Source of the DNA: Escherichia coli
GTDB taxonomy: Bacteria; Pseudomonadota; Gammaproteobacteria; Enterobacterales; Enterobacteriaceae
Reading direction: 5' to 3' (one strand)
Assembly (NCBI RefSeq): GCF_044647545.1
Contig: NZ_CP172818.1
Length of the DNA: 64,000 nt
Part shown: piece by piece, positions 31,580 to 35,195 of the stretch
Position numbering within the stretch: position 1 is the first letter of the stretch
How the letters are laid out: each line of letters starts with the position of its first letter
The notes under the pieces: model-generated
Seen by the model: only the letters and a program-made list of their open reading frames with translations
Databases searched by the model: none
Told to the model about the DNA's origin: nothing
Position numbers and translations under genes: made by a program

Positions 31580-31792
31580 TCAAAGTGCCACTACATGAAC
31601 AGCTGCAGGGCCTTTAGGTCCGTTCTCAATACCAAATTCGACTTCCTGATTCTCAGTTAACGTTTTGAAATCGTTGCTCTGAATAGCTGAGAAATGCACA
31701 AACACATCTTTGCTACCATCTTTCGGCGTGATGAAACCAAAACCTTTTTCAGGGTTAAACCATTTCACTAAACCAGTCATTTTGTTAGACAT
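31580..31792 (-). CDS. cspI: cold-shock protein CspI, 70 aa
   Basis: [38 protein letters not shown]...; long AT-rich upstream leader. Confidence 0.9.
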
Positions 31793-32156
31793 CATTATTA
31801 CCTTTTGAAGAAGTTAGCCCTTGGGCAGAATGGTCCGAAAAAAAAATATCAGAGAGAAAAACCAACAAGGAAATCTCAAGAGGTACAAATAATAAAATTA
31901 TAACAATGACTGCTTCAGATAATTTTGTAACAAACCAGAACACCATTAACGCATGATTAACCAACCATAGCAAGGATTACTTTTGTAAAGAAAAACACAC
32001 GAATGAAACAATAGCTTTATTTATTAATAAAACGTGTCATTCTGTCTAATGACCTTTTATCTTACCCTTAAGATTTCAAGGATTTTGACTCATGGAAGAG
32101 TCCTTTTTATTTAAATTTCACATTCAGCGCTAAAAATAATCCGATTTAATATTAAT

Positions 32157-32654
32157 CTACATCTGATATTTTTTATCTCTTAAAGATTCATAAATCCGTT
32201 GACAAGTCACTCCTGCGATGTAGCGTTTGTCAGCAATTTCAGCATAAAGCTGAGCTTCTGCTGCAATATCTCCGAGCATGTTGGTGAGCATTCCTTCGGC
32301 GGCTTTGGTTGTTTTGCCTCTGACGGCAGCGGCAAGATTTGCGGTATGCTGCGCTGCGTCAAGGCGTATGGCATATTTTGTTGCTTCGGCACGCAGCTGG
32401 TTAACACTATCAGACAGATCAGCAGCCCTGGCAGAAATTTCAGCGGCTTTCTGTTGTGCATCTTTAACAGCCTCATCACGGGATATACTTCGCCCCTGTT
32501 CAATTATTCGAGCAGCAAATTGGACATTTACCTCTTGAGATAATTCGGCAGCATCACGCTCCGCCCATTTTTTTTGCCATCCTCTGTCGCTCCAGACATT
32601 ACCTACGACAAATCCTACCAACACGAGCAAAATCACCGTGAATATCTGATTCAC
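32157..32654 (-). CDS. rzpQ: Rz-like spanin (inner-membrane component) RzpQ, 165 aa
   Basis: N-terminal TM segment plus coiled-coil; overlaps rrrQ end by 4 bp. Confidence 0.8.
32207..32461 (-). CDS. rzoQ: Rz1-like outer-membrane lipoprotein spanin RzoQ, embedded in rzpQ in another frame
   Basis: Lipobox LTSC in [23 protein letters not shown]..., proline-rich mature part. Confidence 0.7.
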
Positions 32655-33184
32655 TGTTCTATCCCCCAGCAGGTTAATGCACTCTCCTGGTCACGACGAA
32701 TAACCTGACCGTAACAATTATTTGAACGAATGCGGCAATCACGTCCACCGTCCTTTATCCACCAGCGAATCGCCTCGCATGCGCCTTTACGATCACCGGC
32801 ATTAAGCCGCTTATAAAACGTCGACGGAAAACACTTACCAGGGCCAATGTTATAGGGACAGAATGACGCGATACCGGCTTTCTGTGGCTCGGTCAGTGGA
32901 ACTTTTATATTGCGCTCCACCCATGCCAGCGCCTTATCACGCTCAATGGCGTTGACCTGGTCGCATTTTTCCTTCGACAGTTTCATATTGGGAAAAACGT
33001 TTTTTCCATCCACCACTGTGGCACCCCGACAGATGGTCCATATGCCAGAACCATCGCGGTATGCCATTGTGTGGTTACCTTCTTTTTCGTCCAGAAACTG
33101 GTCAAGTATCTGAGGAGCAGATGCGCCAGCACCAATCAGCGCCAGAACGGCAGCCGACAGGCCGTATCTGATTTTTGTGTTCAT
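32651..33184 (-). CDS. rrrQ: phage lysozyme (endolysin) RrrQ, 177 aa
   Basis: 177-aa ORF with N-terminal signal-anchor-like segment; lysis-cassette position. Confidence 0.9.
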
Positions 33185-33492
33185 AGATATTTATGATGAG
33201 GACGCTCGTGCTTATTGGCAGGATTTTCAATCTTAAAGGAGTACTGATGCTGCAGATAAGACTCAACTTTTTCTGACAATTTTTCTGCTACTTCCAGGAA
33301 GACTTGCCGGACGCTCATTCTGGCTGCTGCCTCATAAAACTCCAGCGCAGCTCCTTCAACACGGTCCATGGCGACATCCAGGCCAAAAATTTCACCGTCA
33401 AAGCGTTCTTTGTCCTGTAAGGCTACAGTTACCGTAACTTTATTCTCAAAATTACGGACTCCTTTCACAACCAGTTCATAGTATTGAGTCAT
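33181..33492 (-). CDS. ydfR: Qin prophage protein YdfR, 103 aa
   Basis: 103-aa ORF between holin and endolysin. Confidence 0.75.
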   Translation of the reverse strand: MTQYYELVVKGVRNFENKVTVTVALQDKERFDGEIFGLDVAMDRVEGAALEFYEAAARMSVRQVFLEVAEKLSEKVESYLQHQYSFKIENPANKHERPHHKYL

Positions 33493-33496
33493 TGGA

Positions 33497-33712
33497 TTAC
33501 TCTCCTCTCGCAGCCTTACGCCTGTCTTCTTTAATCTTGAAATAAAGATTTGTCAGGTACGTCAGCAGGCCAAATACCAGGCTACCCAGCACACCTATTG
33601 CTGCCCACTGTGAGGGCGTGACTTTATCGAGCAGCTGTAAAAACCAGTAGCCAGCACTGCCTGCGGAGGTGCCGTAGGCAATGCCTGTTGAAATTTTGTC
33701 CATGGATTTCAT
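33497..33712 (-). CDS. essQ: holin EssQ, 71 aa
   Basis: [31 protein letters not shown]... with TM segments and charged C-terminus. Confidence 0.8.
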
Positions 33713-33932
33713 AGCCTCACCTCCGCACGGAACGGATGGTGCAATATGTTTGAAAAGATCGGAGTCTACGGGGTAGTTTTGACAGCACACGTTGTTCTCA
33801 ACGGCGCTAAAAAAACATACACATTAAAAATGTGGGTAATTATTTTGAAAGAAAGTCATATATAAAATAATAATACGAGAAATGTTTTCATATTTAGTGT
33901 ACTGTATACGGCCATTTATACAGGAAAAGCCT

Positions 33933-34103
33933 ATGTCAGAACGTAAAAACTCAAAATCACGCCGTAATTATCTCGTTAAATGTTCCTGCCCAAACTGCAC
34001 CCAAGAGTCAGAACACAGTTTTTCAAGAGTACAAAAAGGTGCCCTTTTGATCTGCCCTCATTGCAACAAAGTATTCCAGACAAATCTTAAAGCTGTAGCC
34101 TGA
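33933..34103 (+). CDS. 56-aa zinc-ribbon small protein (two CxxC pairs); possibly the ribosome-profiling-identified small protein of this region
   Basis: AGGAAAA RBS 6 nt upstream of ATG; MSERKNSKSRRNYLVKCSCPNCTQESEHSFSRVQKGALLICPHCNKVFQTNLKAVA; hairpin downstream. Confidence 0.45.
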   Translation: MSERKNSKSRRNYLVKCSCPNCTQESEHSFSRVQKGALLICPHCNKVFQTNLKAVA

Positions 34104-34466
34104 TTGATTTTATTAGTAACAAGTATTTTTTATATTTTAATAATATATTTAAAGCAGATAATAAAAAACCCGCCTGAGCGGGTTTGAGATTGTGGTGCTT
34201 TTTGTGGGAGTCATCCACTTACGCACTTTGTTTTGCCATGCCAGCAGTTAGCTTCTGCTGTAAAACTATTCATGCAGCAAACCTGCACTTCACCACAATG
34301 GTTAGCATACTTTTCCTGATTAAGATTTTGCCAAATATGCTAGCCATTGTTTCATGTATTGGACCTCCTTACTTTTTATTAAAGAGATCCAATATTCACT
34401 ACTCTGTCCGTATCTCTACTCAGGCATCAGCCTTCTTCGTTATCGTATACAGACGAGCGATGAATT

Positions 34467-34682
34467 TTAATCAGTAATGATGACATTTGCTGCTGCAGGA
34501 CCTTTAGCACCACTCTCTATAGAGAAGGTAACCTTTTGACCTTCAAATAAGGTTCGATAATTATCATTCTGAATCGCAGAAAAATGCACAAACACATCTT
34601 TACTACCATCAACAGGAGAAATAAAGCCGAAACCTTTATCAGCGTTAAACCATTTTACTAAACCAGTCATTTTATTTGACAT
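34467..34682 (-). CDS. cspB: cold-shock protein CspB, 71 aa
   Basis: [38 protein letters not shown]... Confidence 0.9.
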
Positions 34683-34982
34683 TCTACATTCCTTAACTTG
34701 AGCCTTTCGGCATAAATGGTTTGCATAACAGAAACGACTTCGTACTTAATTGGAGAGACTCAAAGAAGGAATAAGTGAATAACACCTGAAATGAGAACTG
34801 CTTTAGTAAACTACTTCGTATATCGTCTGTTCTTCAAACCGACGCAATCATTAACGCATAGTTGAACATATGAAGCAATGTTTATTTTAGACATCCAGCC
34901 ATCTTCAACCCCATCAAAAAACTATAGCTTTCTTCAGGAACGTGTGTATAGTGCGCCAAGTTATCAGTATTAAGGAATTTTT

Positions 34983-35195
34983 TTGTCCCGTAAAATGACA
35001 GGAATTGTCAAAACCTTTGACGGCAAAAGCGGCAAGGGTCTTATCACCCCATCCGATGGTCGTATCGATGTCCAGCTTCATGTTTCAGCGCTCAATCTCC
35101 GCGATGCAGAAGAAATTACCACCGGATTACGCGTGGAATTTTGCCGGATAAATGGTCTGCGTGGCCCTTCAGCTGCCAATGTTTACCTTTCATGA
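34983..35195 (+). CDS. cspF: cold-shock-like protein CspF, 70 aa (TTG start as reported by the ORF track)
   Basis: [37 protein letters not shown]...; divergent from cspB. Confidence 0.85.

Follow-up and report, generated by a model that had tools for sequence, protein, structure and literature searches.

This report concerns three cold-shock genes, cspI, cspB and cspF, found in a 64,000-nucleotide (nt) stretch of Escherichia coli DNA (contig NZ_CP172818.1), which is referred to below as the window and whose numbering is used throughout. The genes belong to an approximately 21-kb defective lambdoid prophage of the Qin type that sits between ydfJ and rspB on an E. coli-like chromosome, with collinear BLAST blocks running from dcp-ydfJ through the prophage to rspB. 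Both the ydfJ/rspB insertion and the Qin gene order were found in the window. Read along the minus strand, the late region starts with ydfU, the antiterminator gene Q, ynfS and cspF (opposite strand), cspB and ynfU (opposite strand); it continues with the holin gene essQ (a match to Pfam PF04971), ydfR, the endolysin gene rrrQ, the spanin genes rzpQ/rzoQ, cspI and an open reading frame (ORF) resembling ynfQ/ymcF, and ends with a truncated ynfR, ynfN, gnsB, ydfO and ynfO (opposite strand) and nohA. Beyond nohA, which abuts a tail-fibre fragment, there are only this fragment, tfaQ and pinQ; head genes are absent. Coordinates are given in Table 1.

A first-pass annotation of this DNA had listed three genes for CspA-family proteins of about 70 amino acids (aa) within the prophage, interrupting the Q-to-lysis and lysis-to-cos intervals. 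The ORFs match its coordinates exactly, and the products (70, 71 and 70 aa for CspI, CspB and CspF, respectively) all match PF00313. Chance or mis-called ORFs are ruled out by Pfam E-values down to 1e-31 and 100% protein identity to K-12. The cspF and cspB genes lie between Q and the holin gene, and cspI lies between Rz (32157–32654) and nohA; therefore, the annotated topology was right. The csp genes also have several properties expected of morons: they are placed between conserved late modules, are missing from related phages and differ in base composition, the cargo islands having 38.0% and 34.1% GC versus 47.7% in the lysis genes and 47.4% in Q. The computations made for this work cover the identity of the genes, their motifs and leaders, their synteny and distribution, and purifying selection.

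The csp genes, their products and their leaders

The cold-shock domain (CSD, PF00313) spans the whole of CspI, CspB and CspF (profile positions 1–64/65 of 66), and each protein is 100% identical to its K-12 counterpart (b1552, b1557 and b1558, respectively). CspB (79%) and CspI (70%) are close to CspA in sequence; CspB is assigned to the NCBIfam CspA subfamily (144.3 bits, cut-off 130), and CspF to the CspF/CspH subfamily NF012007 (160.4 bits, cut-off 111). The KGFGFI motif that the first-pass annotation ascribed to all three proteins is present in CspI (KGFGFITP and VFVHF) and CspB (KGFGFISP and VFVHF) but not in CspF, which has SGKGLITP and VQLHV at its ribonucleoprotein (RNP) sites, carries Thr instead of Trp11 and falls outside the canonical RNA-binding proteins. 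Both CspF and CspH, which share 77% aa identity, are devoid of the aromatic RNA-binding residues (PMC6719143). Judging from these sequences, CspF is a divergent cold-shock-domain paralogue, the sister of CspH, without the aromatic residues, and it should not be handled as a canonical RNA-binding Csp. Despite that loss, cspF appears to be a conserved protein-coding gene, given that 13 CspF protein variants show no change in SGKGLI or in the C-terminal half, that 76 of 77 homologues begin with TTG and that the ratio of non-synonymous to synonymous substitution rates (dN/dS) between cspF and its paralogue cspH is 0.14. Its ribosome-binding site, AAGGA, is located 7 nt before the TTG. An extra in-frame ATG was seen for cspI at 31795.

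The cspA thermoregulator model RF01766 matches at cspB (34451–34843, 158.8 bits) and at cspI (31534–31951, 109.2 bits), in both cases over the full model (positions 1–428) and above the gathering score of 78; part of each score comes from coding-sequence homology, and the leader columns also align with cspA. The long AT-rich leaders that had been noted for cspI and cspB are thus real (see Table 1 for their lengths and GC contents). No RF01766 match was found for cspF even at E ≤ 1, and the distance from the cspB transcription start to the cspF start codon is about 139 nt at most. The leaders of cspB and cspI are cspA-like, and cspF has neither the motif nor the leader. The leader starts of cspB and cspI were set by homology with the mapped cspA start; the original papers reportedly give 161 and 145 nt, close to the 160 and approximately 146 nt obtained here.

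In the alignment of cspB, cspI, cspA and cspG, the conserved columns comprise the -35 (TTGC..) and -10 (..TTAAT) elements, the GGTTTG start region and the GCCGAAAGGC element; a cold-box-like element is present in cspB and partly deleted in cspI. The leader and early coding sequence (CDS) of each gene are predicted to form one long hairpin in which the ribosome-binding site and the AUG are paired (z = -1.96 for cspB and -2.61 for cspI). Chemical probing in vitro of the cspB, cspG and cspI mRNAs has revealed a closed form at 37°C and a register-shifted open form at 10°C (PMC13271884). Terminator-like sites follow cspB and ynfQ (Table 1) and also gnsB (30669–30648, minus strand). In the long 3' region of cspB (34320–34370, minus strand), a near-perfect ribosome-binding site, TAAGGAGGT, lies 8 nt before an 11-codon ORF (MKQWLAYLAKS) that is unannotated in any record examined.

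Distribution, variation and neighbours of the cassette

The 4.2-kb block that carries the three genes is found at a coverage of at least 80% in 1592 of 5426 complete E. coli genomes (∼29%); Qin itself has been reported at the K-12 locus in 48% of 638 strains (PMC6379469). The same gene order, with 94–98% nt identity, is present in five complete phage genomes, those of Tritos (OV696610), 2H10 (Glaedevirus gv2H10, LR595862), PhiR42_1, PhiR63_1 and HannyBb, and every one of them has cspI, cspB and cspF in intact form, except Tritos, in which cspF is broken. Altogether, 357 phage records match the cassette region, most of them over Q or the lysis genes only. A relative of CspF is encoded by 130 viral contigs in IMG/VR, and in all 80 loci retrieved from that source cspF is divergently paired with a cspB-type gene. 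About 30 or more of these 80 loci have the full three-csp layout, wherever the flanks extend far enough; the cassette is also seen next to Q and holin genes that have diverged, and relatives without the cspI module exist (loci L067 and L069). The view that this layout is unusual therefore had to be abandoned. Its recurrence in genomes, phages and IMG/VR contigs indicates that the arrangement is standard cargo of one lambdoid lineage, a normal feature of live phages and not an oddity of a decayed prophage.

PhiR63_1 and HannyBb have an additional 1.7–2.2 kb between Q and cspF. This insert contains nothing but small ORFs, one of them 94 aa long and with a membrane anchor at its C-terminus, and could itself be a further moron; a search for tRNAs and tandem repeats in it found none. 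Likewise, no tRNA genes, which occupy the Q-to-S slot in Stx phages, were detected in the window or in the five phage loci.

Pairwise comparison of cspI from the window, K-12 and the five phages revealed 33 synonymous and 0 non-synonymous differences; the 8 nt differences from K-12 are all synonymous. These data support the notion that cspB and cspI, at least, are kept under selection. Divergence from K-12, for which strain AG100 served as the reference, varies along the late region. The cspB-cspF block (33791–35195) has 100% nt identity, its neighbours are less similar (87% for essQ at 33497–33790, 92% for quuQ and 96% for ydfU, the Q/ydfU stretch being 35617–37470) and the segment from cspI to rzpQ is 94–96% identical. 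Such a pattern is typical of lambdoid mosaics. Among the complete E. coli genomes of the collection, none exceeded 97% identity over 91% of the prophage length. Parts of the prophage interior are only 0–0.4% diverged from K-12-type genomes as opposed to about 2–3% in the chromosomal flanks, which suggests that prophage segments have been exchanged recently between lineages. In strain BHUCD02 (NZ_CM183444.1), whose genome is K-12-sized, the genes gnsB-cspI-rzpQ-rrrQ (11432–14200 of the extracted locus) carry the alleles of the window with 0–2 differences per gene, compared with 8–30 differences per gene between the window and AG100; the explanation is a recombinant Qin or else an artefact of the assembly.

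Several neighbours of the csp genes have links to cold as well. The ynfQ-like ORF starts 10 nt past the cspI stop codon and is probably co-transcribed with cspI; it matched no Pfam or NCBIfam family and shows low dN/dS relative to ymcF. The ynfN gene is intact here and in the phages and is annotated as frameshifted in K-12. YnfR is a cold-induced small protein in K-12 (PMC6001520), and GnsA/GnsB raise the content of unsaturated fatty acids and rescue growth at low temperature (bioRxiv 10.1101/2024.03.27.586906). Taken together, the lysis-flanking cargo (cspB, cspI, ynfQ, ynfR, ynfN and gnsB, with ydfK at the other end) looks like a package for cold and stationary-phase adaptation. At that opposite end of the prophage (26017–26432, plus strand), ydfK, annotated as a cold-shock protein gene, lies next to ynfT (37 aa). 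Rfam matches above the gathering score elsewhere in the window were the DicF small RNA in the prophage (42623–42674, plus strand), IS009 within the tail-fibre assembly gene region (27471–27668, minus strand) and STnc560 in the chromosomal flank (16334–16547, minus strand).

Table 1. Features of the csp cassette and the surrounding late region in the window
Feature	Position	Strand	Evidence and remarks
cspI CDS, 70 aa, KGFGFI/VFVHF	31580..31792	-	ORF; Pfam CSD E = 1.6e-31; protein identical to K-12 CspI
cspB CDS, 71 aa, KGFGFI/VFVHF	34467..34682	-	ORF; Pfam CSD E = 9.8e-32; 100% nt identity to K-12
cspF CDS, 70 aa, TTG start, SGKGLI/VQLHV	34983..35195	+	ORF; Pfam CSD E = 5.6e-22; divergent from cspB
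cspB 5' leader, 160 nt, 36.9% GC, cspA-type thermosensor	34683..34842	-	RF01766; cspA alignment; cold-box-like UGAAGAACAGA
cspI 5' leader, about 146 nt, 32.2% GC, cspA-type thermosensor	31793..31938	-	RF01766; putative start from cspA alignment
Putative cspB promoter, -35 TTGCTT, 17-nt spacer, -10 GTTAAT	34850..34878	-	Columns conserved with cspA and cspG promoters
Putative cspI promoter, -35 TTGCTA, 17-nt spacer, -10 GTTAAT	31945..31973	-	Columns conserved with cspA, cspB and cspG promoters
Terminator-like hairpin downstream of cspB	34166..34185	-	8-pair stem with 5 G-C pairs, then T-run
Terminator-like hairpin and T-run after ynfQ	31351..31372	-	GCTCCTTCGGGAGC then TTTTTT, read by eye; scan listed plus strand only
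Late antiterminator Q (quuQ/ydfT), bounds Q-to-lysis interval	35617..36369	-	Pfam PF03589 E = 9.5e-54
Lysis cassette: holin essQ (ORF 33497–33790), ydfR, endolysin rrrQ, spanin rzpQ with embedded rzoQ	32157..33790	-	ORFs; annotation of homologous loci
ynfU, zinc-ribbon small protein, antisense to late operon	33933..34103	+	Pfam PF23499 E = 6e-31; NCBIfam NF038384
nohA, terminase small-subunit homologue, cos-proximal end of lysis-to-cos interval	28885..29454	-	ORF; annotation at homologous position 'DNA-packaging protein NohA'
ynfQ/ymcF-like zinc-ribbon small ORF, 62 codons	31381..31569	-	ATT at annotated start; annotated cold-shock small protein in K-12-like records
ynfN, 76-aa form, intact	31078..31308	-	ORF; annotated ynfN in phage records; conserved module part
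ynfR, shortened by a stop codon to 12 codons (21 aa in K-12)	31338..31376	-	
gnsB, GnsA/GnsB family	30732..30908	-	Pfam PF08178 E = 8e-33
ynfS-like 29-codon ORF downstream of cspF	35250..35339	+	Matches YnfS, listed between cspF and ydfT in PMC6001520

The core cspH-cspG locus

The chromosomal locus cspH-cspG-ymcF-ymcE-gnsA is present in 5364 of the 5426 genomes (98.9%), as compared to about 29% for the phage cassette, and its K-12-type version (5020–6297 of the extracted locus) is collinear with the window segment 30745–35191 minus the lysis genes. The alignment is 76% identical from cspH through the intergenic region and the cspG leader to the first ∼115 nt of cspG, which correspond to cspF-cspB; it is 74% identical and gap-free between cspG-ymcF and cspI-ynfQ, and 73% identical between gnsA and gnsB. 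The affinity of cspG changes along its length: its leader is 66% identical to that of cspB and 44% to that of cspI, the 3' half of its CDS is 54% and 66% identical, respectively, and the downstream sequence 34% and 66%. The maximum chi-square breakpoint falls at coding nt 72–81 and is significant over the whole locus (0 of 2000 permutations); a crossover within the CDS alone is not (401 of 2000 permutations). Similarity of the cspB and cspG leaders has been noted previously (PMC13271884).

A single homologous deletion between direct repeats, the cspB-type and cspI-type genes, would convert the phage layout into the chromosomal one. It is possible, although we would not put it at even odds, that the core locus derives from the late region of a Qin-type phage, as a fragment domesticated long ago in which recombination between cspB-type and cspI-type genes deleted the 2.9-kb lysis cassette and produced a chimeric cspG. 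No compact cspH-cspG-ymcF-gnsA form was found in phages among 50,697 records, and the literature that we consulted contains no statement on a phage origin of the cspG/cspH locus; a 2019 paper on Csp phylogeny never mentions phages (PMC6719143). Should such an origin be true, E. coli would owe five of its nine csp paralogues (cspB, cspF, cspG, cspH and cspI), as well as gnsA/B and ymcF/ynfQ, to a single cold-adaptation cassette carried by a phage, and about 30% of strains would hold a second, still phage-borne, split copy. If confirmed, this would be a modest example of phage cargo turned into core genome by losing the lysis genes; as a thread of the present analysis it is only mildly novel.

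One phage record, PHB10 (MK524177), has a divergent cspF-like/csp pair beside integrase, yedK and umuDC genes (3275–8080 of the extracted locus). It was set aside as a carrier of the compact form because the record appears to include chromosomal flank (yedK ... umuDC); for the same reason, another enterobacterium may have a similar csp pair next to the attachment site of a prophage.

Function, competing explanations and known systems

The literature is our source for cold induction, for the behaviour of the leaders as thermometers, for expression of the genes as morons and for their effects on fitness. Both cspB and cspI are cold-induced, and cold sensitivity requires deletion of four csp genes (reviewed in PMC4956666). 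Over-produced CspI acts like CspA on test mRNAs; CspB, CspF and CspH do not (PMC11648934). In the lysogen of Tritos, which is a prophage of strain LF82 and forms plaques, the genes cspI, cspB and ynfN are listed as morons and their transcription exceeds the prophage background 93-, 59- and 27-fold, respectively (PMC9928086). In long-term stationary phase of K-12, cspB, cspF, cspI, ynfN and ydfK are up-regulated, and mutants of cspB and cspI lose the competitions (PMC7406224). The words 'prophage' and 'Qin' occur 0 times each in that paper, although all five genes lie in Qin.

We consider it very likely, with a probability of about 0.93, that cspB and cspI are autonomous morons under thermosensor control, whose CspA-like chaperones add to the redundant cold and stress set of the host, and that cspF is a conserved, functionally obscure paralogue. 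Each of the two genes would be a self-contained unit of cargo with its own apparent cspA-type promoter and long AT-rich leader. At 37°C, the leader would form one long hairpin hiding the ribosome-binding site and the start codon; in the cold it would refold, stabilizing the mRNA and allowing translation, and a terminator-like site would close each unit. The products would then act as CspA-like RNA and single-stranded DNA chaperones alongside those of the host. The larger cold-related cassette (cspF, cspB, ynfU ... cspI, ynfQ, ynfR, ynfN and gnsB) would be ancestral to the live phage lineage and would have survived the decay of the prophage.

Several observations weigh against this interpretation. 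Equilibrium folding at 37, 15 and 10°C keeps the ribosome-binding site and AUG paired and reproduces no opening, so that the temperature switch rests on the published probing (PMC13271884). The promoters and transcript ends of cspB and cspI are placed by homology and the operon ends are putative; a generic promoter scan found sites no more frequently than in shuffled sequence. The expression evidence comes from strains other than that of the window. The case is weakest for cspF: its expression is very low, no protein has been detected and its function is listed as unknown, the same being true of cspH (PMC4956666; PMC6719143); its deletion is without phenotype (PMC7406224); Tritos carries a broken copy, and an early stop codon cuts short one IMG/VR allele. 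A benefit of cspF to the host is doubtful.

These defects of cspF, along with the defective state of the prophage, in which nohA abuts the tail-fibre fragment and head genes are missing, would be expected if the csp genes were neutral passengers, or what is left of a dead prophage in decay, and had no current function. Such an explanation is highly improbable for the set as a whole and is largely refuted for cspB and cspI, with cspF as a possible exception: cspI has accumulated no non-synonymous changes against 33 synonymous ones, both leaders still score above the Rfam gathering threshold, and phenotypes of cspB and cspI have been published. Even for cspF, the dN/dS of 0.14 relative to cspH and the invariant SGKGLI and C-terminal half in 13 variants argue against simple decay. 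The genes could instead serve the phage, with CspB and CspI, produced as part of the late operon, acting as RNA chaperones and transcription antiterminators that aid late expression, lysis and packaging upon induction at low temperature outside the gut. Bae and colleagues are said to have shown in 2000 that CspA-family proteins are transcription antiterminators. The shared late-operon direction of cspB and cspI, their fixed positions in five phage genomes and many IMG/VR contigs and the persistence of the cassette with diverged Q and holin partners fit this possibility. It nevertheless appears unlikely, as the two genes have leaders, terminator-like sites and putative cspA-type promoters of their own and lysogen expression of them is published (PMC9928086), cspF and ynfU run opposite to late transcription, some relatives are without the cspI module, most lambdoid phages in our phage search are without any csp gene, and a defective prophage without virion genes still keeps its csp genes under selection.

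The collinearity of the cassette with the core cspH-cspG-ymcF-ymcE-gnsA locus, at about 73–76% nt identity, raises the question of whether Qin recently captured host genes from there, in which case they would not be long-standing phage cargo; a review has predicted horizontal acquisition of the Qin cold-shock genes (PMC6379469). We find this rather improbable. The split arrangement is common to many live phages, and getting from the compact layout to the split one takes a duplication and, on top of it, the insertion of a lysis cassette, whereas a single homologous deletion is enough for the reverse. Furthermore, synonymous sites are saturated between the two loci (synonymous divergence, dS, from 0.8 to above 3), so any transfer between them must have been ancient and not recent.

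Thus, thermosensor-controlled cspB and cspI morons with an obscure cspF companion remain the preferred reading, and the earlier suggestion that the prophage had retained host-beneficial cargo is reasonable. As to benefit, it agrees with the late-region position of these morons, with the selection seen in cspI (33 versus 0) and with the published cold induction and fitness data. Its other part, retention after decay, has to be given up: the cargo is already expressed in live, plaque-forming Tritos (PMC9928086) and therefore predates the decay. The regulation, prophage location and moron status of the Qin cspI, cspB and cspF genes are already published; the trio are textbook genes and finding them here is in itself of little weight.

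Among known systems, K-12 Qin has the same insertion site, gene order and proteins for cspI, cspB and cspF; the window copy is a mosaic variant of it with an intact ynfN and a truncated ynfR. With the live phages it has in common the order Q-cspF-cspB-ynfU-S-ydfR-R-Rz-cspI-ynfQ-ynfN-gnsB, but these phages are complete, with head, tail and terminase genes, whereas the window copy is a 21-kb remnant. The core locus has the same order and orientations as the Qin cassette apart from the lysis genes, and the same divergent pair of an aromatic-poor csp and a cold-shock csp. It combines a cspB-like cspG leader with a cspI-like 3' half of cspG and downstream genes, and it differs in its compactness, having a single cold-shock csp where the cassette has two and lacking ynfU, and in being only ∼73–76% identical.

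The regulatory counterpart is cspA with its mRNA thermosensor, whose promoter, cold-box region, long leader, GCCGAAAGGC element and downstream coding region align with the window genes. The cspI leader departs from it in being shorter (∼146 nt), missing ∼16 nt of the cold-box region and scoring 109 bits as opposed to 159 for cspB, and cspF has no such leader. In position, the csp genes resemble the classical lambdoid morons, namely stx, which Stx phages carry between Q and S, and bor, which lambda carries after Rz: the csp cargo uses the same two late-operon slots and, as in those cases, is AT-rich and appears to be autonomously expressed. The difference lies in the cargo, which serves toxin production or serum resistance in the classical morons and, in all likelihood, cold and stress adaptation here.

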